A stretch of DNA of 64,000 nt from Patescibacteria group bacterium (lineage in GTDB: Bacteria; Patescibacteriota; Minisyncoccia; Phycocordibacterales; Phycocordibacteraceae): NCBI GenBank assembly GCA_019752595.1, contig JAIELV010000001.1, positions 248,486 through 312,485 on the forward strand, written 5' to 3'. The notes beneath the pieces were generated by a model, which was not told where the DNA came from, made no database searches, and saw only the letters and a program-made list of their open reading frames with translations. Each line of letters opens with the position of its first letter. Position 1 is the first letter of the stretch. This document shows positions 4,098 through 62,942 of the stretch, piece by piece. A program made the translations under genes and the position numbers.

Positions 4098-4113
4098 TTG
4101 ATCTTTACTATTT

Positions 4114-4344
4114 TTAAAGCAGAATAGTTACCTGATTGTTCGACACTTCAAGTACTCCGCCTGGAACTTCAAAGTTTTGCGTTCCTTCCTTTGTTCTTAT
4201 CGTTACAACTCCTGGGAGAACATTTGATACAAATGCCTCGTGATTTGGCATGACGGTAATTTCACCCGCGCCAGTTTGCACAGTAACTGAAAGCGCTTCG
4301 CCTGAGAAAACGTTTTCGTGAACTTTTGTTATTGCAACGCGCAT
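4114..4344 (-). CDS. atpC: F1 ATP synthase epsilon subunit
   Basis: A 76-aa beta-sandwich-only epsilon (MRVAITKVHENVFSGEALSVTVQTGAGEITVMPNHEAF). It is the last gene of the atp operon. Confidence 0.85.
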   Translation of the reverse strand: MRVAITKVHENVFSGEALSVTVQTGAGEITVMPNHEAFVSNVLPGVVTIRTKEGTQNFEVPGGVLEVSNNQVTILL

Positions 4345-4363
4345 GCTTTTAGGAATACGAACC

Positions 4364-14354: not shown

Positions 14355-14392
14355 TAATTACACTATGTTACCATGGTAACATAGTGTAATTA
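14355..14392. repeat. 38-bp perfect palindrome TAATTACACTATGTTACCATGGTAACATAGTGTAATTA that exactly fills the gap between the divergent NUDIX and DHFR-like start codons
   Basis: I checked the 19-nt arms base by base and they are perfect reverse complements around a CCATGG centre. Position suggests an operator or divergent-promoter element. Confidence 0.9.
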
Positions 14393-15040: not shown

Positions 15041-15111
15041 CGGGGCGTAGTATACCGGTAGTACATACGCTTCGGGTGCGTAGAGACCGAGTTCGATTCT
15101 CGGCGCCCCGA
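15041..15111 (+). tRNA. tRNA-Pro (anticodon CGG)
   Basis: Cloverleaf: acceptor CGGGGCG/CGCCCCG, anticodon stem TACGC/GCGTA, loop TTCGGGT (U33, G37), T-arm CCGAG-TTCGATT-CTCGG, discriminator A, no encoded CCA. Confidence 0.75.
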
Positions 15112-15231
15112 CTAAGGACTCCGCGAGAAATTCGGTTCGTAAAGTTCTTAGACAGATTTCGGGCCGTAAGTAAACTTTCGGCCCGTTCACTCGGACGGCA
15201 TGAAAATAAATTTTCGCGCCGCTCCTCGTTC

Positions 15232-15302
15232 CGGGCCGTAGTATACCGGTAGTACGCATGCATGGGGTGCATGTAGATCGGGTTCGATTCCCGACGGCCC
15301 GA
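15232..15302 (+). tRNA. tRNA-Pro (anticodon GGG)
   Basis: Acceptor CGGGCCG/CGGCCCG, anticodon loop ATGGGGT, T-loop TTCGATT. It is a paralog of the first tRNA-Pro and shares its D-arm. Confidence 0.75.
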
Positions 15303-15316
15303 CCCAGACGTCATTC

Positions 15317-15388
15317 GCTCTCATAGCTCAATGGATAGAGTGTATCCCTCCGAAGGATGAGATGCAGGTTCGATTCCTGCTGAGAGCA
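15317..15388 (+). tRNA. tRNA-Arg (anticodon CCG)
   Basis: Acceptor GCTCTCA/TGAGAGC, D-arm TAGCTCAATGGATAGAGT, anticodon loop CTCCGAA, T-arm GCAGG-TTCGATT-CCTGC. Confidence 0.8.
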
Positions 15389-15451
15389 CAAAACTGCTTT
15401 TGTGCGTGCAGAAATCGAAAGGGTTTGCGATGTTGAGTCCGCGAAACAGCA

Positions 15452-22421: not shown

Positions 22422-22433
22422 TTTTGGTCTTTG

Positions 22434-22506
22434 TGGACCCTATCGGATTCGAACCGATGACCTCCTCATTGCAAATGAGGCGCTCTACCAACTAAGCTAA
22501 GGGCCC
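22434..22506 (-). tRNA. tRNA-Ala (anticodon UGC), with the G3:U70 identity pair
   Basis: Reverse complement gives a 73-nt cloverleaf: acceptor GGGCCCT/AGGGTCC with G3:U70, anticodon loop TTTGCAA, T-loop TTCGAAT. Confidence 0.85.
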
Positions 22507-22515
22507 TTTTCAGGG

Positions 22516-22848
22516 CTATGTGATTCTATCAACTTTTGCAGCTAAAATAAAGTCGTTTTCCGATAGACCATTAATTGCATCTGTGGTCAAAAATACACTC
22601 ACTTTCCCCCACTGAACCGTCAACACAGGGTGGTGACCCTCCTCTTCTGCAAGTTCTCCCACTTTGTCAGCAAACGTAATGGCTTCTTTAAAATTTTTGA
22701 AGATGAATTTTCTAGAAATTGAAAGTCCATCATCCGAAACGTTCCATTCAGGCACTTCAGGTTGATACGTTGCTATCTGCTCACGTGTCAGCGGTGGAAT
22801 ACCGCCTTCACATGCAACACATTTTTTATCTGTTAGATGAATGTTCAT
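22516..22848 (-). CDS. pterin-4a-carbinolamine dehydratase (PCD/DCoH)
   Basis: EEGHHPVLTVQWGKVSVFLTTDAINGLS matches the PCD signature. Confidence 0.8.
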   Translation of the reverse strand: MNIHLTDKKCVACEGGIPPLTREQIATYQPEVPEWNVSDDGLSISRKFIFKNFKEAITFADKVGELAEEEGHHPVLTVQWGKVSVFLTTDAINGLSENDFILAAKVDRIT

Positions 22849-22868
22849 TGTGCAAGTCTGCCGTGCTG

Positions 22869-22898
22869 ATAACTGATATGATATATCATATCAGTGAT
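22869..22898. repeat. Palindromic element copy A (ATAACTGATATGATATATCATATCAGtGAT, 29 of 30 identical to copies B and C), 25 bp upstream of the PCD start
   Basis: The core CTGATATGATATATCATATCAG (22873-22894) is a perfect 22-bp palindrome. Confidence 0.9.
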
Positions 22899-22900
22899 TA

Positions 22901-23878
22901 TTATGTACGGCGTTTATTCTCTATAGCGTATTTAATAATATGGTCCAAAAACTCTTCATAAGAAATGCCCACCGCAGCGAGTGATTTGGGCAACAAAGAC
23001 TCTTTTGTAAGACCCACACCTGCCGCGCTGTTTGTTTCCAAAAAATATACTCCACGCGGACTCACCATAAAATCGGATCGAGAATAGCCACTCTGACCAA
23101 GCGCTTCATGCGCAAGCTTCGCGAGTCGTTGAATTTCTGCAGTTTCTTCTTTAGAAAAATTTCCAGGAACTCGCTCCACTGTTTCTCCGTTGTATTTTAC
23201 TTCACGGTCAAAAAAGGCGGCTTTCGGCGGAGGAACAATTTCAATAGGAAGTAGGCTGTAAATCTTCTCGCCTCGTAACCCCTCCACAACCCCTGCGGTC
23301 GCTTCTTTCCCTTTTATATACTCTTCTACCAACACCGAAGAGGAGTGTTCAAAAGCCTTTCGAACACCTTCCATAAATTCTTCAAAGGTTTTTGCCAAAG
23401 TCATACCAACGGAAGAGCCTGCAGATGCTGGCTTCACGATGACAGGCGGAGAGAACGAGCGGAATGCGTCGCGAGCTTCTTTTTCGAGATCTGGGCTCAC
23501 CTTCAAAACTTTGTGGCGAGGCATGCGCACACCCTCTTTCGCAAGCACTTCCTTCGAGAGTGGTTTATTCAAAGAAAGTGCTGCGGCGTAAGCTCCTGCG
23601 CCTGTATACGGAATACCAATGCGGTCTAAAATCCTCTGGACGCTCCCATCCTCTCCGTATTGCCCGTGAAGCACGTTAATTGCCACATCTGCGTCCAAAA
23701 GTGCTCTATCGGGCGAGAGAGGAATACCGCGCGCATGCCACACTCCTTCTTTGTCGATAAATATGTCAAGTGGTCGGTACGGCTCCCGTTGCAGTTTTTC
23801 CAAAATATTAGCCCCCGTTAAAAGCGAAATATCATGCTCACTAGAAGGACCTCCGCGAAGTACTGCAACTTTTATCAT
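22901..23878 (-). CDS. ddl: D-alanine--D-alanine ligase
   Basis: ATP-grasp Ddl family. MIKVAVLRGGPSSEHDISLLTG is Ddl-like at the N-terminus, and the C-terminal ATP-grasp motifs are present. Confidence 0.9.
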   Translation of the reverse strand: MIKVAVLRGGPSSEHDISLLTGANILEKLQREPYRPLDIFIDKEGVWHARGIPLSPDRALLDADVAINVLHGQYGEDGSVQRILDRIGIPYTGAGAYAAALSLNKPLSKEVLAKEGVRMPRHKVLKVSPDLEKEARDAFRSFSPPVIVKPASAGSSVGMTLAKTFEEFMEGVRKAFEHSSSVLVEEYIKGKEATAGVVEGLRGEKIYSLLPIEIVPPPKAAFFDREVKYNGETVERVPGNFSKEETAEIQRLAKLAHEALGQSGYSRSDFMVSPRGVYFLETNSAAGVGLTKESLLPKSLAAVGISYEEFLDHIIKYAIENKRRT

Positions 23879-25203: not shown

Positions 25204-26622
25204 TTATATTTCTTCGAACGTTGGCAATATTTTGATAGTAGCGGAGCGAGTGACAGGTAAACCTCCAAGATCGGTACATGAAAGCCTATACGTTACTTCG
25301 CTGTTGATAGCGCTCGTTGTCTTTGTTCCTGACGCTCCCGAAAGTGTCCATGAATCACCGTTTCCTGAAAGTGTGCACGAACCCGCCTGCACATCGACAA
25401 CGCTCCAGGTAAGAACCGTGGTCGTTCCTGGACGCACTGAGCGCGCAGTAGGCACAAGTGTCAGTTGTGCGTCAGCCGATGATTCGCTGTCATCAGCAAG
25501 AGAGCTACACTGCGGATCAAAACCTGCTCCAATGCCATAATCTTCAAAAGTATCACCGTCGTTGTCGATGCCGTCTTCGCACTCTTTCGGATTGTACTCA
25601 TCATTGTCAGAAGAGCTGGTGCATCCGCGATCGCCAGGAGGAACGGGATAATCGAGCTTGCCGTCACCGTCGTTGTCGATGCCGTCTTCACATTGTGCTG
25701 GATTTGCTTCGCTAGTATCGGCAAGCGATACACAACCAGAATCGTTGTTGACACCAAAACCAAAGTCTATTTTTGTATCTCCGTCATTGTCATTCCCATC
25801 AGAACATGCGGGATTTGCAGGATCGGTTTCATTATCGTCGGATGCGTTAATACAACCTGGGTCGGGATTACCACCACCAAAGTCTACTTTCCCGTCTCCG
25901 TCGTTGTCGACACTGTCTGCACATTGCGCAACGGTAGATGTTGTCTCGGAATCGTCCTGCGCGTTTATACAACCTGGATCTCCTCCAGAAAAATCAGTTA
26001 GACCGTCGCTGTCGTTGTCGATGCCGTCCGCGCATTGCGCAGGTGTTTCTCGACAGGCAACGCCAGAGCCAACAACGCCGTACGTAGGACCCTTGAACGA
26101 AAGCCAGCCGACAGTAGAGGTGTCAGCATCTGAACCGCCTCCCCATGCGTATCCTTCCCACGAACATCCAACCGCTTTTACCTGGTGCCCAGTTCCTGCA
26201 AGATGGAGCCACCCGCCCCACCCACCGATTTCTTGCGATGCTCCAGCACCCGCAATCGCGCGTGCCCATCCAGATGCTAAACCTGTTGTTTTATTAAAAC
26301 GCGCTTCGCATGGAGAGGTAGGGCAACCCGCAAGATCTGCAGAATTAAAAGATACCCAGCCAGCGTTTGAAGACCATGCGTAGCCTGACATTAAGCCACT
26401 CGTGTCAACTTTTACTCCGTAGTTTGTGGAGGCGCACGATCCTGCGGTGGTGCAGTTCATCGAAACCCACCCAATTGTTGAAGACCAGCCGTATCCTGAG
26501 AGATTATCTGTTGATGCTGCACGCACCATATGCACCGCGCCCCACACCGAAACAGCGAACAACGCGAAAAGAAAAAGTCCGAGGAGAAAACGGCCACGTG
26601 CTATTTGAAAAATATTTTGCAT
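25204..26622 (-). CDS. secreted repeat protein: N-terminal G(Y/W)AWSxxxGW(V/L)SF repeats followed by at least six Cys/Asp-rich C-x-DG-x-DND-x-DG calcium-binding-like repeats
   Basis: Signal peptide, then repeats such as CADGIDNDSDG, CADSVDNDGDGKVD, CSDGNDNDGDTKID, CEDGIDNDGDGKLD and CEDGIDNDGDTFED. These resemble thrombospondin-type-3 or MopE-like metal-binding motifs. The coding DNA shows matching tandem periodicity. Confidence 0.6.
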   Translation of the reverse strand: MQNIFQIARGRFLLGLFLFALFAVSVWGAVHMVRAASTDNLSGYGWSSTIGWVSMNCTTAGSCASTNYGVKVDTSGLMSGYAWSSNAGWVSFNSADLAGCPTSPCEARFNKTTGLASGWARAIAGAGASQEIGGWGGWLHLAGTGHQVKAVGCSWEGYAWGGGSDADTSTVGWLSFKGPTYGVVGSGVACRETPAQCADGIDNDSDGLTDFSGGDPGCINAQDDSETTSTVAQCADSVDNDGDGKVDFGGGNPDPGCINASDDNETDPANPACSDGNDNDGDTKIDFGFGVNNDSGCVSLADTSEANPAQCEDGIDNDGDGKLDYPVPPGDRGCTSSSDNDEYNPKECEDGIDNDGDTFEDYGIGAGFDPQCSSLADDSESSADAQLTLVPTARSVRPGTTTVLTWSVVDVQAGSCTLSGNGDSWTLSGASGTKTTSAINSEVTYRLSCTDLGGLPVTRSATIKILPTFEEI

Positions 26623-26631
26623 ATACCTGAT

Positions 26632-27234
26632 TTATTGCATTAAAACGCTGCCACCATACCCTGATTCGTAGGCTCCTTCGTACCCTGCTTGATAATTCCC
26701 TTGAGAATAGGCAGGGGCAAAAGGACTTGTTCTCCATATTGTTCCTGGAGAAACGACAACAGAACCTGTGCATGAAAGTCTGGAATAGGTACAGTATTTC
26801 CAACCCGCACAGTCAGCGCTCGAGACCCACGAGCAGTGTGCCCAACTCATAGGAATCCACCCTGCGCTTATTTCTGCTGCTGAAAGAACACATCCGACGC
26901 CAACAGGAGTTCTATCCCCAGGATCTTGATTCTGTTTCACCATGATGTTCAAGGAGCATGTTGCAGGTTGTGCAATCCACGACCACTCAGTAATACAACT
27001 CTCACCAATACAAAAACCGTCTGTTGCTCCTATCGCGTCGGCCCAAAAACTGCCTTTCTTCTCTTGGTACGTGAGACTCGAATCAATAAGTGCTGGTGGA
27101 TTCCCTCCAGGAGGAAGCGCGAGAGAGTTTGAATAGTTTGCAGCGAACGCCGAGGTACCCAAAACCAAAAGGCTCAAAAAAACAGTGAGTGTGTTTCTCA
27201 GAATGCTTCCAGTTTTTTGTGAAGTCTGTTGCAT
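26632..27234 (-). CDS. secreted Cys-rich protein, paralog 1 of a tandem triplet
   Basis: Sec signal peptide with an AFA|AN cleavage site. Shared blocks: FWADAIGATDGFCIGESCI, GVGC, AGW, SW-HC-WVS-DC, YC-Y-LSCTGSV. C-terminal Gly/Tyr-rich tail. Confidence 0.55.
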   Translation of the reverse strand: MQQTSQKTGSILRNTLTVFLSLLVLGTSAFAANYSNSLALPPGGNPPALIDSSLTYQEKKGSFWADAIGATDGFCIGESCITEWSWIAQPATCSLNIMVKQNQDPGDRTPVGVGCVLSAAEISAGWIPMSWAHCSWVSSADCAGWKYCTYSRLSCTGSVVVSPGTIWRTSPFAPAYSQGNYQAGYEGAYESGYGGSVLMQ

Positions 27235-27240
27235 AGGTTT

Positions 27241-27756
27241 TTATCGAGTTACCGTGCCAGGTGCAATGGTGACAGACCCCCCACACACCAAGCGTGTAAA
27301 GGAACAGTATTGAGGACCAGAACAGTCACGACTACGAACGCTTGTACAGTGGTCCCAGCTTCCAACAATCCATCCTGCAGCTGCATCAGCACTCGAAACT
27401 GTGCATCCGATACCTACCGTGTAACTGCTTTGCGGATCTTGGTTTTGGATTTTCTTTGTTTCAAGGTGACACGGTGAGCCTGTGGAACCTGCGGGCCAGG
27501 AGTTTATACAACTCTCACCAATACAATATCCATCGTTTGAACCTATTGAATCAGCCCAAAAATCTCCTGTTTTTGTTTGGTCAGTACTGCCTACGTTCAA
27601 CGGTGCATTCACGTTGCCCACAGGTGGGTTTGAGCCAGGTTCGGAAAAATTCGCCGCAGAAACGATACCAAACACCAACAAAAAACCGAATAGAGCAACA
27701 ACTACGTCTTTCACGAGTGAGACTGCGGCAACTTTGATGGTGTTATTTTGAATCAT
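27241..27756 (-). CDS. secreted Cys-rich protein, paralog 2 (start re-assigned to the internal ATG at 27756)
   Basis: MIQNNTIKVAAVSLV, then signal peptide VSA|ANFSEPGSNPPVGNV and FWADSIGSNDGYCIGESCI. The longer ORF runs antisense into paralog 3's Gly-rich tail, which is an artefact. Confidence 0.55.
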   Translation of the reverse strand: MIQNNTIKVAAVSLVKDVVVALFGFLLVFGIVSAANFSEPGSNPPVGNVNAPLNVGSTDQTKTGDFWADSIGSNDGYCIGESCINSWPAGSTGSPCHLETKKIQNQDPQSSYTVGIGCTVSSADAAAGWIVGSWDHCTSVRSRDCSGPQYCSFTRLVCGGSVTIAPGTVTR

Positions 27757-27760
27757 ATGT

Positions 27761-28357
27761 TTATTGAGTAGTGTCGGAGAATCCACCACCACCGTCTCCT
27801 CCTCCGCCACCGCCACCGCCACCATAAGAACCTTGCGAGTACTGTGGTACGTAATTCTCCTGTGTCACAATTCCTGGCTCAATAACCACATTGCCCGTGC
27901 ATGAAACCTGCTGGTATACGCAGTAATATGGCCACGCGCAGTCTGAACTTCGGACCGACGTGCAGTAGTCCCAACTCACCAATGTCCATCCTGCGGCGGT
28001 TTCTTGTGCGGAAGGAATACATCCGACACCCATTGCGCCAGGGTTATGGTCTTCACGAATCATAGTGTTTAGCTGACATGAAGAACCTGCCGCGCCTGCA
28101 GGCCATGCGGTAATACAACTTGCGCCGATACAGAAGCCGTCTGTTGCGCCTATTGAATCAGCCCAAAAATCTCCTGTCTTTTCCTGGTATTCAACGCCCG
28201 CATTCACTGGTGGTGCCACATTCCCCGCGGGTGGGTTGGTCGAGGGTTCAGTCATATTTGCCGCATACGCCACACCCGCAATGACGGATGCACAGACAAG
28301 AACTCCGAGTACTAGACGAAGACTTTCTCTAAAAAAACTTTTTAAAAATGCCGACAT
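27761..28357 (-). CDS. secreted Cys-rich protein, paralog 3
   Basis: Signal AYA|ANMTEPSTNPPAGNV and FWADSIGATDGFCIGASCI. C-terminal poly-Gly tail GGGGGGGGGDGGGG. Confidence 0.55.
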   Translation of the reverse strand: MSAFLKSFFRESLRLVLGVLVCASVIAGVAYAANMTEPSTNPPAGNVAPPVNAGVEYQEKTGDFWADSIGATDGFCIGASCITAWPAGAAGSSCQLNTMIREDHNPGAMGVGCIPSAQETAAGWTLVSWDYCTSVRSSDCAWPYYCVYQQVSCTGNVVIEPGIVTQENYVPQYSQGSYGGGGGGGGGDGGGGFSDTTQ

Positions 28358-28371
28358 GCAAAACGTGCAGT

Positions 28372-28632
28372 CTATTGACCTAACTCATTAAGAAGACTTG
28401 CTCTGTCTTGCGACGTAAGTCCATCTGAATCAGGATTATCGGGGAGCGTATCGAGAATGGCCTGCGCCTCCTGCGGTTCTATTACCTTCTCTTCCAAACT
28501 TTTCGTATACAAACCCTGGTATCCGATAAAACACAAAAGCACGATAACCACGAAGAACAGAAAAGCGAGGAAGGCTTTTTGCGAATCAGGAGAATACTGG
28601 GATAAGTTCATACGTACATGATACCCCCGCAC
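28372..28632 (-). CDS. hypothetical small single-pass membrane protein
   Basis: Hydrophobic helix FLAFLFFVVIVLLCFIGY followed by an acidic tail. It is the first ORF of the secreted-protein cluster. Confidence 0.35.
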   Translation of the reverse strand: MRGYHVRMNLSQYSPDSQKAFLAFLFFVVIVLLCFIGYQGLYTKSLEEKVIEPQEAQAILDTLPDNPDSDGLTSQDRASLLNELGQ

Positions 28633-31366: not shown

Positions 31367-31391
31367 AAGTGCTATACTTAGTATAGCACTT
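31367..31391. repeat. 25-bp palindrome AAGTGCTATACTTAGTATAGCACTT, immediately after the uvrB stop and about 55 bp upstream of the uvrA start (copy 1 of 2)
   Basis: Arms of 12 nt around a single-base centre. A second copy with a complementary centre base lies at 35080-35104. Confidence 0.85.
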
Positions 31392-34011: not shown

Positions 34012-34038
34012 AAAAAACCCACCTAAAGGTGGGTTTTT
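34012..34038 (-). terminator. Bidirectional Rho-independent terminator (AAAAACCCACC-TAAA-GGTGGGTTTTT)
   Basis: Perfect 11-bp stem flanked by A and T runs, downstream of the minus-strand ORF 34056..34313. Confidence 0.65.
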
Positions 34039-35051: not shown

Positions 35052-35079
35052 ACGGGTACTATATCAAACGATTTCCAAA

Positions 35080-35104
35080 AAGTGCTATACTAAGTATAGC
35101 ACTT
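35080..35104. repeat. 25-bp palindrome AAGTGCTATACTAAGTATAGCACTT, immediately after the rarA stop and 28 bp upstream of the PMM start (copy 2 of 2)
   Basis: Same arms as 31367-31391. Both copies are followed by TAG. Confidence 0.85.
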
Positions 35105-36228
35105 TAGAGGTATTTTTTATTCTTGAGTTTTTCGGGAAGATACGACTCTTCATCGTACATTTTGTAGTCTTTGCCGTATCCTTCGTCTTTCATTAGTTTT
35201 GAAGGCGCGTTTCGCACCTTCAAAGGTATTGGCAGGTTTCCATACTTTTTCACGTCTTCTTGTGCGGCGCGAAGTGCGTCATATGCAGAACGGTCTTTTT
35301 TTGACTGCGAGAGATAGGCAACGCCGTGTGCCAAATTAATCCCTGCTTCTGGCATGCCCACAGAACGCACGGCGTCAAATACAGCATTCGCGACCACAAG
35401 CGCGGTCGGCTGTGCAAGGCCGATGTCTTCGGAGGCGAATATCACCATACGCCTGGCAACAAATACTGGATCTTCTCCGCCCTCTAGCATTCTCGCGAGG
35501 TAATACATCGCGGCGTCAGCTTGCCCAGCACGCATACTTTTTATAAACGCCGAGATGGTGTCGTAGTGTTCCTCTCCCTTCTTGTCATAGCGAAGTTTAT
35601 TTTCTTGCAAGGATTCCGCCAAACTCTCTGCAGTGACCGCGCCATACAACTTCTCGGCATTTTCGATAATGGTAATTGCGGATCGTGCGTCACCGTTTGC
35701 GTATGAAACAATCCAGTCTTCCGCTGCTATTCCTAGTTTCACACCTGTGCGTTGCAGAATTGCTCGCATATCAACATCCTCAATCTGTTTCAGCGTAAAT
35801 ACTCGGCAACGCGAGAGAAGTGCAGGGATGACTTCAAAGCTTGGGTTCTCGGTTGTGGCGCCAACGAGCGTTATCTCGCCCTTCTCTACAAACGGTAACA
35901 GAAAATCTTGTTGTGCTTTGTTGAATCGGTGTATCTCATCAAGAAAGAGTACTTTTCTTCTCCCGCCTACTTCAGTTTCTGCCACAGTTTGAATATCTTT
36001 TTTACCAGAAGCAACAGCAGAGAGCTCATAAAATTCTGCATCAACGGCGTCGGCATAGATACGCGCTAACGTAGTTTTTCCAACTCCAGGCGGACCCCAC
36101 AAAATAAAAGAGAAGAGGTGCTTTGTTTCTACGGCGACGCGAAGCGGCTTCCCAACACCCACTAAGTGTTCTTGCCCAATAAATTCATCAAGGGTTTTCG
36201 GTCGAATGCGCACTGCGAGGGGCTGCAT
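35104..36228 (-). CDS. rarA: replication-associated recombination protein A (AAA+ ATPase)
   Basis: Walker A GPPGVGKTT, and N-terminus QPLAVRIRPKTLDEFIGQ typical of MgsA/RarA. Confidence 0.85.
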   Translation of the reverse strand: MQPLAVRIRPKTLDEFIGQEHLVGVGKPLRVAVETKHLFSFILWGPPGVGKTTLARIYADAVDAEFYELSAVASGKKDIQTVAETEVGGRRKVLFLDEIHRFNKAQQDFLLPFVEKGEITLVGATTENPSFEVIPALLSRCRVFTLKQIEDVDMRAILQRTGVKLGIAAEDWIVSYANGDARSAITIIENAEKLYGAVTAESLAESLQENKLRYDKKGEEHYDTISAFIKSMRAGQADAAMYYLARMLEGGEDPVFVARRMVIFASEDIGLAQPTALVVANAVFDAVRSVGMPEAGINLAHGVAYLSQSKKDRSAYDALRAAQEDVKKYGNLPIPLKVRNAPSKLMKDEGYGKDYKMYDEESYLPEKLKNKKYL

Positions 36229-55750: not shown

Positions 55751-56412
55751 GGGCGACGCACTAAATATCGTATTGAAATCGGAAGAATGCCGCCACAGAA
55801 AATCACAATACCCCCGAAGAGCACAACCACATCAAAGCCAAAGTTGTCACCTACCAAGCCACCCAGTGCGAGTGCGATACCTTGGCAGAGGAACACCATC
55901 GTTTGATACGTACCTACGGTTTCCGTATATTCGTCTTTGCTTATCGTATTAAAGAAAAGTGTGCGCCACGACAAGAGGTTCACTGTGCTCATACAGCCGA
56001 GCACAAACATCACTGCATACAACTGCCACAACTCTGTAGCAAAACTGAGATAGATGTAGCCTGAGCCATATACAAAATTTGCAATCGCCAGTCCCCATAC
56101 TTCGTCCAAATGTCCACGATGTTTATCAAAAAATCTTCCAATAGGAATAGAGATCAGCGCGGCAACGCCTTTGTACATGAGGTAGCCTAGACCAACGTGC
56201 GTTGCACTTCCACCCTCTATGTGTCCAATAACAAAGAGTGCGAGAACAACAGCGATGAACGCATCTGTAGCCCAGAACGTGACATCGTTTAAGGTCAACG
56301 CGCGAAGCATCTTCCCTTTCTTCGAGTCCTGATAAAAATCAAGCCTGTCGGGAGTTTCAAAACTTGCCATTTCAGGAATTGTACCGTACTTAGAAAAGCT
56401 CGGGTATGACAA
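55747..56412 (-). CDS. MFS-transporter-like half protein (6 TM helices, motif-A-like GRFFDKHRG)
   Basis: Resembles the C-terminal 6-TM half of an MFS permease. Possibly a truncated gene. Confidence 0.45.
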   Translation of the reverse strand: MSYPSFSKYGTIPEMASFETPDRLDFYQDSKKGKMLRALTLNDVTFWATDAFIAVVLALFVIGHIEGGSATHVGLGYLMYKGVAALISIPIGRFFDKHRGHLDEVWGLAIANFVYGSGYIYLSFATELWQLYAVMFVLGCMSTVNLLSWRTLFFNTISKDEYTETVGTYQTMVFLCQGIALALGGLVGDNFGFDVVVLFGGIVIFCGGILPISIRYLVRRP

Positions 56413-56899
56413 ACGGACCGTTGGTTTCTATCTTTACAAAGCGAACTTTTAGATTGTCTGCAAATTGCCTGTCGGTGTCCCTATCGCCAAACATAAGTGA
56501 GTTCTGAAAATCCACACCTTCCTCAACTGTACCCATATATGGATACAGTCCACCTATTGCTGGTTTTCTGCAAGTGCATCCGTCATCGGGACCATGCGGA
56601 CAGACCATGATGAAATCAAAACTAAGACCGTGCATCGCAAGTTCGTTTTTTATTTTATTCATAACAGCGTCAAAAACATCCTGTGGGTGTTTTTCCGTTC
56701 CAAGAAACGTTTGATTTGTTGCCATCACAAGCGTGTAACCTGCCTCGCGAAGCTTTTTCATTCCTTCAATTGCACCTGGAAGAAACTGAACTTCCTCTGC
56801 GCCTTTCAACGGAAATGTTTCGCGGGGATCAACGCCTTCAGGTTTTTCAGGTTCCCAAATGAATGTCCCGTCGCGATCTAAAATTGCTAGTTTTTTCAT
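56390..56899 (-). CDS. gmhB: D,D-heptose 1,7-bisphosphate phosphatase-like HAD-IIIA phosphatase
   Basis: LAILDRDGTFIWEP (motif I) and the Zn-binding CPHGPDDGCTCRKP, which is characteristic of GmhB and histidinol-phosphatase-like HAD. Confidence 0.75.
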   Translation of the reverse strand: MKKLAILDRDGTFIWEPEKPEGVDPRETFPLKGAEEVQFLPGAIEGMKKLREAGYTLVMATNQTFLGTEKHPQDVFDAVMNKIKNELAMHGLSFDFIMVCPHGPDDGCTCRKPAIGGLYPYMGTVEEGVDFQNSLMFGDRDTDRQFADNLKVRFVKIETNGPFVIPELF

Positions 56900-56930
56900 T
56901 TTTTATTTCTACACTCCATCACGCTCATTG

Positions 56931-56960
56931 ATAACTGATATGATATATCATATCAGTTAT
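56931..56960. repeat. Palindromic element copy B: perfect 30-bp palindrome ATAACTGATATGATATATCATATCAGTTAT, 32 bp upstream of the gmhB start
   Basis: I checked the 15-nt arms and they are exact reverse complements. Confidence 0.9.
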
Positions 56961-57001
56961 CTTCAGGGGTTTTTCTACTCTACGTACTAGTAAAGTAACT
57001 T

Positions 57002-57751
57002 TTATTTTAGGGCGCTTGGGTGGTGCACGCTCCACGCATACATAGCAACAGCGGCTGCGGATGCAACATTCAAAGATTCGCAATCAGGATGCATGGGGAT
57101 AGAAAGAAATTGATCACACACTGCTTTTGCGTACCCTGGAATTCCTTCCCCTTCGTTTCCAAGAACAAGTATGGTAGGTGTATCAAATTTTTCAGCAGTT
57201 ACAGGCTTTTTCCCGTCACCTGAAAGTCCGTGAACTTTCATACCTTTTTCTTTAAGTTCTGAAATCGCTTGCTGAGTATTTTCAAGAATCACGAACGGAA
57301 CGCGAAATGCCATACCAGCGGAAGCGCGTATCGCGGCGGGCGTCAGATGCGCCTGTTTTTTTTGTGGTGCCAAAACCGCCGCTGCTCCAAATGCAGCCGC
57401 CGAACGCACGATAGCGCCCACATTGTGCGGATCGGTAACTTCGCCCATGAGTACAAGAAGTGTATCCGTATTCGGTTTGAAATCTCTTACAAACACGCCA
57501 AACGGCATGCCTAAGGATGAAACGGAAATTTGTGCGATAACGCCCTGGTGTGGCGCATTGCCCTCGACTTGCGAAGTAACTTTTCGAAGATCCAGGCGTT
57601 CCGTGGGTACACCTGAATCACGAATGAGTGTCCGTAATTTCGTGTCATCCATCGTAGCCGCGACAAAAATTTTCTTCACAATCTCGGGCATTGAAATCAA
57701 CGCCTCTGCGACCGAGTGCCTTCCGTATATGAATGTTTTTGATTGCGCCAT
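57002..57751 (-). CDS. SpoU/TrmH-family RNA 2'-O-methyltransferase (RlmB-like)
   Basis: SPOUT motifs VTDPHNVGAIVRSAAAFGA, LVLGNEGEGI and SLNVASAAAVAMY. Confidence 0.8.
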   Translation of the reverse strand: MAQSKTFIYGRHSVAEALISMPEIVKKIFVAATMDDTKLRTLIRDSGVPTERLDLRKVTSQVEGNAPHQGVIAQISVSSLGMPFGVFVRDFKPNTDTLLVLMGEVTDPHNVGAIVRSAAAFGAAAVLAPQKKQAHLTPAAIRASAGMAFRVPFVILENTQQAISELKEKGMKVHGLSGDGKKPVTAEKFDTPTILVLGNEGEGIPGYAKAVCDQFLSIPMHPDCESLNVASAAAVAMYAWSVHHPSALK

Positions 57752-61824: not shown

Positions 61825-62202
61825 CTATCCAACAATAACGTTAAATCCCGCGAAGGCTGTTCGCTTCATATCAAACGGCATGTCGCTCATTTTTGCATCC
61901 TTATACTTTTCTGACATGTGTGCATCAATTTTTTTATTGACTGCGTTGCGATGTTTTTTGTTTCGATACGTTATGTACGAAAACCACACATCTTCATTCT
62001 TTTTTACTTTAGTCATTTTCGCAAAGGTGAACGTTATGTGTTTCGGTTTTGCATCATCAATGAGGCATTCTTTGTAATCAAGAGCCCCGTACGAAAGCCA
62101 AATACCTTTGGCCTCAGTCGCCATTTTCTTGTACGCAGTACGATTCTTCTTCGGAACAACGAGGACGAATCCGTCTACGTATTGAGTTTTAGATTTAGCC
62201 AT
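61825..62202 (-). CDS. hypothetical protein (possibly DUF1428-like)
   Basis: A 125-aa ORF. The family call rests on weak recollection only. Confidence 0.45.
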   Translation of the reverse strand: MAKSKTQYVDGFVLVVPKKNRTAYKKMATEAKGIWLSYGALDYKECLIDDAKPKHITFTFAKMTKVKKNEDVWFSYITYRNKKHRNAVNKKIDAHMSEKYKDAKMSDMPFDMKRTAFAGFNVIVG

Positions 62203-62220
62203 ACAAATGTATTAGAATGA

Positions 62221-62250
62221 ATAACTGATATGATATATCATATCAGTTAT
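62221..62250. repeat. Palindromic element copy C: perfect 30-bp palindrome identical to copy B, 19 bp upstream of the start of the 125-aa gene
   Basis: Identical to 56931-56960. Confidence 0.9.
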
Positions 62251-62942
62251 TGAGCGAAACAATAAAACAGACCGCCGCCGCCAGTTGACTTCAGGTTTTC
62301 TAAACTACATCCACGGCTTGCGTGGGAAGCATTCCAAGATTTCATTGGAGCCGAATCATCAATACCTACGCGATCATGGTGCCCTACAACTGCTGAACCG
62401 TCGGTGCTTGATGTCCAGTTATCGCACGTTGTGTCTTTACCCGAAGAATCGACAGCAAGCATGCCTTCCATAGTTGAACCTGTCAGAATATCGTGGACAT
62501 TTACCTCATCGCCGCGTCCTGAAACAACCTCGCCTTTTTCGGTAAGCGCAGTGTTTTTGTTCAAATTATTTTGGTCGCTATGAAGACGAAATACATTTTC
62601 TGCAATGAGTTTGCCTTTTGCGTTATACCAAGGACCATTACCGATTCTATCTTTCGCATTCACTGCGGGATTTTCGTCCGTAAAGTATGAACTCAAATAT
62701 GCGCGCCACGTTTTCCCCGTCACACCTACTGCTTCCGCAAGCTGTGCGCAGTACGCATCCGCGCCTTTTATTCCGCCTAGGTCACCGCCCTTCCCAGGAT
62801 TCGCGCTCGTTATGAAAAACGACATTGAAGTGTCTTCCGCAGGAAGTTCTGGGGCTTCTGCGGGTTTTGGATTCATAAAGAAGTAAACACCCGCGCCGAT
62901 AATGACGAGTGCGAGAACTATAAGAGGAATGCTGTATTTCAT
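62247..62942 (-). CDS. hypothetical secreted protein (signal peptide, Gly/Asp-rich)
   Basis: N-terminal signal MKYSIPLIVLALVIIGAGVYF. No family recognised. Confidence 0.5.
   Translation of the reverse strand: MKYSIPLIVLALVIIGAGVYFFMNPKPAEAPELPAEDTSMSFFITSANPGKGGDLGGIKGADAYCAQLAEAVGVTGKTWRAYLSSYFTDENPAVNAKDRIGNGPWYNAKGKLIAENVFRLHSDQNNLNKNTALTEKGEVVSGRGDEVNVHDILTGSTMEGMLAVDSSGKDTTCDNWTSSTDGSAVVGHHDRVGIDDSAPMKSWNASHASRGCSLENLKSTGGGGLFYCFAQ

Follow-up and report, generated by a model that had tools for sequence, protein, structure and literature searches.

Three palindromes in a Patescibacteria genome as probable solo copies of the predicted site of a TrpR-like protein

The 30-bp palindrome ATAACTGATATGATATATCATATCAGTTAT stands between genes at three places in a 64-kb stretch of a Patescibacteria genome (the window, that is, the whole 64,000 nucleotides analysed), and raises the question of whether it is a regulatory site shared by the genes that follow it or a repeat scattered among them. 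The initial annotation counted two exact copies and one matching at 29 of 30 positions, regarded conservation over 30 bp as beyond chance and noted TGATATGAT on both strands, and all of this was borne out: searching the whole window at up to three mismatches returned exactly three matches, the chance expectation from 100 shuffles of the window was 0.00, and TGATATGAT does occur on both strands of the palindrome. Searches for weaker or half-site copies in the window (20-mer, 16-mer arm, 10-mer half-site, 12-mer centre) gave nothing else above chance, so that the palindrome family is all-or-none there.

The window has about 46% G+C and predominantly minus-strand genes, and all three copies lie between co-directional minus-strand ORFs. 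Copy 1 (22869-22898, 29/30, with T to G at 22896; 20-bp core at 22874-22893) is found in the 52-bp spacer 22849-22900, in which unrelated stretches of about 8 and 20 nt accompany the palindrome, between the upstream D-Ala-D-Ala ligase gene ddl (22901-23878, minus strand, identified by Pfam) and the downstream pterin-4a-carbinolamine dehydratase gene (22516-22848, minus strand; PF01329, 99 bits). The nearest homologues of the window Ddl are Patescibacteria/Kaiserbacteria proteins. Copy 2 (56931-56960, 30/30, within a perfect 32-bp palindrome at 56930-56961; core at 56936-56955) is contained in the 102-bp spacer 56900-57001, between a SpoU/TrmH-family RNA methyltransferase gene (57002-57751, minus strand, Pfam) and a HAD/PNK3P-type phosphatase gene (56390-56899, minus strand, 29 bits). 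Copy 3 (62221-62250, 30/30, within a perfect 32-bp palindrome at 62220-62251; core at 62226-62245) is contained in the 44-bp spacer 62203-62246, between an endostatin/DUF1554-like gene (62247-62942, minus strand, Pfam) and a DUF1428 gene (61825-62202, minus strand, 98 bits). The palindrome is separated from the downstream start codon by 20, 31 and 18 nt in copies 1, 2 and 3, and from the upstream stop codon by 2 nt in copy 1 and 41 nt in copy 2; copy 3 overlaps it, including the TAA stop of ORF 62247-62942.

The position of all three copies 18-31 nt before a start codon is what a classical regulon would lead one to expect, with the palindrome as extended -10 promoter plus operator governing the three downstream genes; TGATATGAT also fits TGnTATnAT on both strands. 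The shared promoter proposed in the initial annotation was not supported, in that no sigma-70 -35/-10 pair (16-18 bp spacing) was found around any of the three copies and the two extended -10-like elements TGnTATGAT, one per strand, face each other. Also speaking against a regulon are the lack of graded weaker sites and a sequence identity that reaches past operator length.

The comparison with relatives showed the same junctions without the palindrome. Copy 1 is absent from L136, L138, L139 and L141, whose Ddl proteins are 79-88% identical and whose ddl and dehydratase genes overlap by 4 bp (ATGA); it is present in the 97% identical strain L135 as in the window, as 56 extra bases including the palindrome (an alignment gap of 56 columns). 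Copy 2 is absent from L143 (enolase 85% identical), where the SpoU-HAD gap is 3 bp compared with 102 bp in the window, and copy 3 is absent from L142, where the endostatin-like/DUF1428 gap is 18 bp compared with 44 bp in the window and the TAA stop keeps its position. The core was found nowhere at up to four mismatches in the approximately 75 kb scanned from L136-L141 (of approximately 115 kb fetched). The palindrome is the sole common part of the three inserted segments (+56, +99 and +26 bp), and the three comparisons of filled with empty sites gave no clear or consistent target duplication; AAATAAAA, present at both junctions of the copy 2 spacer, may be a direct repeat. These alignments indicate that the three window copies are recent insertions into operon junctions. 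The copies are alike over 30 bp, more than the 20-24 bp of the family (in a pair of sites bracketing one gene, agreement is limited to the central 20-24 bp), and are therefore copies of each other. The absence of the sites from relatives with 79-88% identical flanking proteins, where the flanking genes overlap or abut and are translationally coupled, speaks against a shared promoter or regulon.

Outside the window the conserved unit is TGATATGATATATCATATCA, a core of 20 bp with the structure (TGATA)2(TATCA)2. An exact scan of 185,579 genomes, one per species, placed the central 24-mer at 15 loci, all of them in Patescibacteria MAGs (including two labelled Saccharibacteria and one Kaiserbacteria MAG); a single Paceibacterota MAG carries 11 exact 24-mer copies, or 13 with two near-copies, and the central 20-mer was present in 119 metagenome stretches. 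Core density is about 1 per 20-50 kb, with 1-2 to a dozen or more copies per genome. According to the flank analysis, only the 20-mer and a weak AC/GT on each side are common to all lineages, and flank positions beyond -3 hold almost no information. The core is bordered by shoulders that depend on the lineage (ATAAC/GTTAT for the window; ACTAAC/GTTAGT and ACGCCC/GGGCGT for others), and these in turn by perfect palindromic extensions particular to each site: among about 150 sites, 44% have a palindrome that continues for 3 bp or more on each side (1.6% expected), and the longest reaches 56 bp. Copies differ by substitutions and indels made symmetrically on both arms, as in CAATCCACTAAC...GTTAGTGGATTG versus CAATCACTAAC...GTTAGTGATTG. 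Such flank symmetry could plausibly arise by intrastrand template switching at palindromes.

On the basis of crude long-ORF calls, the core lies inside an ORF at 27 of about 150 sites although the loci are 84% coding, and the 83 intergenic sites comprise 54 co-directional, 20 convergent and 9 divergent gaps, against a background in the same loci of 532, 137 and 134, respectively. That several ORFs end in the core follows from its initial TGA and from its leaving only one frame of three open in either direction. In co-directional gaps the distance from the core to the upstream stop is mostly the shorter one, and the intergenic sites lean, if anything, to gene ends and not to starts. Copies lying without positional bias had been named beforehand as the outcome that would favour a selfish repeat, and the counts gave this outcome, with no promoter-side bias and more convergent than divergent sites; the small regulon of the initial annotation is not supported, and no functional theme common to the genes downstream of the palindrome was found either. 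The genes beside the core are heterogeneous: uvrB, ogt, purD, tsaD, metK, udg, a toxin-like protein gene and genes for aminoacyl-tRNA synthetases. The presence of uvrB, ogt and udg beside some copies, together with the likeness of CTG-N-CAG to the E. coli box, raised a LexA/SOS box as a candidate, which was dropped given that the LexA motif of Patescibacteria is cited as of direct-repeat type and that the adjacent genes are heterogeneous. A resemblance of the core to a Fur box was set aside, since the half-site spacing differs. In a few genomes only (L003, L006, L008, L012, L015, L018, L019 and L079), a one-sided CGCAC motif accompanies the core at a distance of 5-15 nt; of 254 half-flanks, 15 have it and 6 have its reverse complement (about 2.5-fold).

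The ORFs of 134 core-bearing loci were clustered, and the top cluster is a protein of about 140 aa, encoded next to the core in 11 loci (12 with L070). This protein matches PF01371 Trp_repressor with 48.8 bits (cut-off 27), has weak matches to the NCBIfam TrpR and YerC/YecD models, and finds its best PDB sequence and fold matches in TrpR and TrpR-like (HisR-type) proteins; it carries an extra conserved C-terminal segment of about 45 aa with a KRKYPLHFLLF motif, and the profile search gave no Y1_Tnp match and no recognisable nuclease domain. The core or a one-mismatch variant lies 6-38 nt upstream of the trpR-like start in 12 loci (with the exception of L025, which has another palindrome type), and a perfect, variant or "split" copy of the core lies directly past the stop in the same loci. 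Counting all palindrome types, 16 of 16 trpR-like genes have an upstream palindrome, and a downstream one accompanies all 15 that have sequence past the stop. About 11% of core sites touch a trpR-like gene, although any one gene amounts to only about 0.1-0.25% of a CPR genome. On two contigs, a bracketed gene and a solo copy are found 12-39 kb apart (L103 with L022, L075 with L097). At 90% identity the family falls into at least 1,611 clusters; its source names are Kaiserbacteria, Paceibacterota and Parcubacteria, and its annotation reads only "YerC / Trp family regulator". The split sites downstream of the gene in L070, L071 and L075 read ACTGATATGATATATCAATAC-GGGT-GTATTGATATATCATATCAGT, with the centre expanded, the outer arms retained and the 10-bp TGATATATCA duplicated.

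The pairing of gene and palindrome was examined blind, by picking three family members by contig extent alone; L145 held a second gene, giving four genes (two in L145, one each in L146 and L147). Each of these four, and the L025 gene, is bracketed on both sides by a non-core palindrome of its own; the alternative palindromes are TATACGATATATCGTATA, TTATCTTATAAGATAA, TACTATGATATATCATAGTA and GGTATGATATATCATACC, and TTATCTTATAAGATAA also brackets the L025 gene. The residues aligned to the DNA-contacting positions of TrpR change with site type (VG(L/P)DT, VGHDT, VGYDT, LSYKT, ISPST), in a sample of four non-type-1 site types represented by one or two genes each and with residues that vary within type 1. 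L145 8395-10506 holds two TrpR-like paralogues 1.1 kb apart, whose palindromes are centred on CGATATATCG and TCTTATAAGA, respectively.

The TrpR-family operators (TrpR, HisR) are 20-bp palindromes, often autoregulatory, and about half of hisR genes have the operator in front of them (PMC9413887). Because of the bracketing of the gene, the covariation and this operator size of 20 bp (PMC9413887), we infer that the 20-bp core is the predicted cognate site of the TrpR-like protein. The part of the initial annotation that saw in the palindrome an operator for a dimeric regulator thereby gains support: the candidate regulator would be this Patescibacteria-specific TrpR-family HTH protein, whose gene the palindrome brackets in other genomes, whose paralogues are bracketed by different palindromes, and whose predicted core site has the length of a TrpR-family operator. 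The probable existence of a cognate TrpR-like regulator, and the overlap of the site with the likely promoter at the trpR-like gene itself, also fit a classical regulon; in view of the empty junctions and the gene context described above, we nevertheless consider it unlikely that the three window genes form one.

The palindromes would also fold as RNA, into hairpins of -11.4 to -18.5 kcal/mol (z -4.2 to -6.7), with -18.5 kcal/mol (z -6.4) for copy 2 and -15.6 kcal/mol for copy 3. Such stability, the family-wide position nearer to the upstream stop with some enrichment at convergent junctions, and the perfect covariation of the outer stems are consistent with an element acting at the RNA level only, the mRNA hairpin serving between cistrons, like REP hairpins, as a 3'-end stabiliser, a processing site or an attenuator and the DNA-binding protein being irrelevant. 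The search for intrinsic terminators at the copies found an A+T-rich stem with no T-run on the minus strand (that is, no U-tract on the gene strand) and a single match, at copy 1 on the plus strand. Structure alone leaves the 20/20 conservation across classes unexplained, and the RNA-level account does not explain the link to the trpR-like gene, the covariation of site and protein or the copies upstream of the gene, making it distinctly improbable.

The insertion polymorphism among relatives, the identical 30-mers, the lineage-specific bursts and the patchy distribution across classes would also fit an autonomous selfish palindromic repeat, MITE-like or REP-like, that an unseen transposase mobilises, with the trpR-like gene as a mere frequent neighbour or target. 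Against this stand the lack of a recurrent transposase family in the ORF clusters of the 134 core-bearing loci, the lack of a target duplication, a length of 30 bp, far below MITE size, and the fact that every paralogue has palindromes of its own at either end, which argues for a cognate pair and against a chance neighbour; we rate it as the least probable of the explanations considered. Unlike a MITE, which has terminal inverted repeats and a target-site duplication and measures 50-500 bp, the element shows no consistent direct repeat.

The likeness to REP/REPIN-RAYT systems is closer: cognate palindromes stand on both sides of a single-copy gene, and further copies of them are scattered, for the most part outside genes and in many cases at 3' gene ends or where genes converge; different gene/palindrome pairs occur together, and relatives differ widely in copy number. 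Unlike RAYT, the partner is a TrpR-family HTH protein and not a HUH Y1 transposase; unlike REP, the palindromes are perfect and without a GTAG-type 5' tetranucleotide, number tens of copies and not hundreds (3 per 64 kb), and lie inside ORFs in about 20% of core sites. In the related loci the element shares with TrpR/HisR (YerC) systems a 20-bp palindrome before the regulator's own gene, and the partner protein scores above the PF01371 threshold. The element differs from these systems by the extra C-terminal segment of the partner protein, by the second site past the stop in the genes examined, by exact, recently inserted solo sites that show no promoter bias and in some cases lie in genes, and by the absence of an evident amino-acid pathway regulon. 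The stem-loop arrays of TIGR-Tas, considered as another candidate, have the reverse architecture, conserved stems around variable spacers. No description of a dispersed TrpR-type operator element was found in the searchable literature: no paper was found containing the 16-nt central stretch of the core, and none on TrpR-like proteins in CPR.

The occupancy of individual junctions was followed in a conserved block of genes (alaS, M13 peptidase, udg, ogt, PD-(D/E)XK, mrr, mnmA). The M13 peptidase-udg junction holds a bracketed trpR-like gene in L145 and a solo core in L025 (peptidase 94% identical) and in L006; the ogt-PD-(D/E)XK junction holds an antisense bracketed gene of another type in L145 and L025 and a solo core in L011, and in L006 is empty, with overlapping genes. 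Junction occupancy thus varies by genome, which means that these compact genomes gain and lose both genes and solo sites at their few tolerant junctions.

Other origins of the copies were considered and rejected. A pre-existing hairpin or terminator as insertion target is at odds with the empty sites of L143 and L136-L141, which have no palindrome, and with the rarity of T-runs among the copies. A TA or CTAG target duplication fits the window and the bin.228 lineages and fails in the ACGCCC/GGGCGT lineage. The copies as remnants of a deleted cassette were discarded because no trpR-like fragment lies near the window copies (the gene itself was not found in the 64-kb window) and because the solo core at the M13-udg junction of L025 differs in type from the cassette of its close relative L145. 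A phage origin was discarded after a 10-kb megablast against phage genomes gave no match; the core was found in only 2 viral contigs, and no relatives of the TrpR-like protein were found in viral contigs.

The copies inside genes behave differently from simple insertions. The core is read in frame 2, as the peptide DMIYHI, inside real miaA, murD, argS, sua5, comEC and PGA_cap genes. This is the only open frame of the core; in miaA, murD, argS and sua5 there are no indels, and the solved MiaA and Sua5/YrdC homologues align through the core segment without gaps. In miaA and murD the core is 20/20 between species with 65-78% identity in the coding DNA around it, for which the chance is about 0.001 per pair. 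As these alignments indicate, the in-gene copies originated where they now lie, and their DNA sequence is kept unchanged; the 20/20 identity points to selection or conversion acting on the DNA itself and not to simple insertion, and is the main reason against dismissing the element as junk.

The sites known as parS also occur inside genes. The in-gene copies of the core, held in its only open frame and conserved at the DNA level between species, resemble them, and the exact, all-or-none consensus at about 1 copy per 20-50 kb likewise suits a chromosome-organising site (of parS, matS or Noc type) that the TrpR-like protein would bind for segregation, compaction or division control. Such a role is very unlikely, considering that all three sites are missing in close relatives, with none in the approximately 75 kb scanned, that genomes have anywhere from 1-2 to a dozen or more copies, and that paralogous gene/site pairs of different specificity coexist 1 kb apart. 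On the side of such a role, the canonical parS (16-bp TGTTNCACGTGAAACA-type) was not found in the window at up to three mismatches; the core differs from it in sequence. The Neisseria DUS and Pasteurellaceae USS are exact motifs across species, found in genes in tolerated frames and in hairpins at gene ends; the core is similarly exact across species, lies in genes without indels in a tolerated frame and forms intergenic hairpins. It differs from DUS/USS by its density (about 1 per 20-50 kb versus about 1 per kb), by being a 20-bp palindrome, by being missing in close relatives and by being tied to the gene of a DNA-binding protein.

The window contains further palindromes. A second family, AAGTGCTATACT-N-AGTATAGCACTT, was observed at 31367-31391 and 35079-35105, one copy lying between the uvrB stop and the uvrA start and the other between rarA/mgsA and a HAD hydrolase gene. 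The copy upstream of uvrA recurs exactly in the 88% relative L136 (1052-1074), and the family is likely to be the conserved operator of a regulon for DNA repair; its conservation upstream of uvrA is the behaviour of a real operator and makes it an internal contrast to the 30-bp element. A 38-bp perfect palindrome, TAATTACACTATGTTACCATGGTAACATAGTGTAATTA, exactly fills the gap of the divergent NUDIX and DHFR/RibD_C genes (14355-14392) and is likely the operator of another regulator. At 34013-34038, AAAAACCCACCTAAAGGTGGGTTTTT forms a bidirectional terminator-like hairpin, which shows that canonical A/T-flanked terminators are in use here, unlike the 30-bp element.

Other features of the window were recorded in passing. 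Among known RNA families (Rfam 15, gathering score) only four tRNAs were found in the window: a plus-strand cluster of Pro-CGG, Pro-GGG and Arg-CCG (15041-15389), and tRNA-Ala-TGC (22433-22506), just past the end of the dehydratase gene downstream of copy 1. Hint/intein-like ORFs lie between uvrA and uvrC in relatives (L136 4278-6762, L138 5181-6137); the corresponding variable uvrA-uvrC region of the window is 25204-28632, whose ORF 25204-26622, the only one scanned, had no Pfam match. Gene orientation and GC skew both change sign at about 4100-4360 of the window, where the genes converge, marking either a terminus-like region or a local effect.

Taken as a whole, the element works most like a TrpR-family operator turned dispersed repeat, which formally parallels REP/RAYT and parts from it on the HUH transposase. 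The window palindromes are probably solo dispersed copies of the 20-bp site of the TrpR-like protein, spread in a REP/RAYT-like manner. In the corresponding mechanism, a dimer of the TrpR-like protein would bind the 20-mer; the upstream site would overlap the promoter of the trpR-like gene and lead to autorepression; a dimer at the solo sites would act as a roadblock or local repressor; and read-through transcripts would carry a hairpin of 10-14 bp between cistrons, which could affect mRNA decay or translational coupling. A more far-reaching version, to which we give only tentative credence, is a self-propagating repressor/operator module, REP/RAYT-like with a pure DNA binder as partner, in which the bracketed trpR-like gene would be a cassette that can be gained and lost and that seeds exact solo operators, including in-frame ones in essential genes, their symmetry being kept by hairpin-templated repair.

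The Patescibacteria account for much of bacterial diversity and encode very few regulators, and their transcription factors and binding sites are almost unstudied. The present finding links a widespread protein family to a predicted exact site and a testable specificity code, with sites that turn over fast, have been inserted in formerly coupled operons and in some cases stay constant inside essential genes. The exact 20-mer is, in addition, a practical marker for such modules in metagenomes. If the spread is active, the REP/RAYT idea would extend to a non-nuclease partner, and if the module reading is true, CPR bacteria would harbour a class of domesticated or selfish element that has not been described before; if the spread is not active, the protein and its sites would still be the first candidate global DNA-binding system for Patescibacteria.
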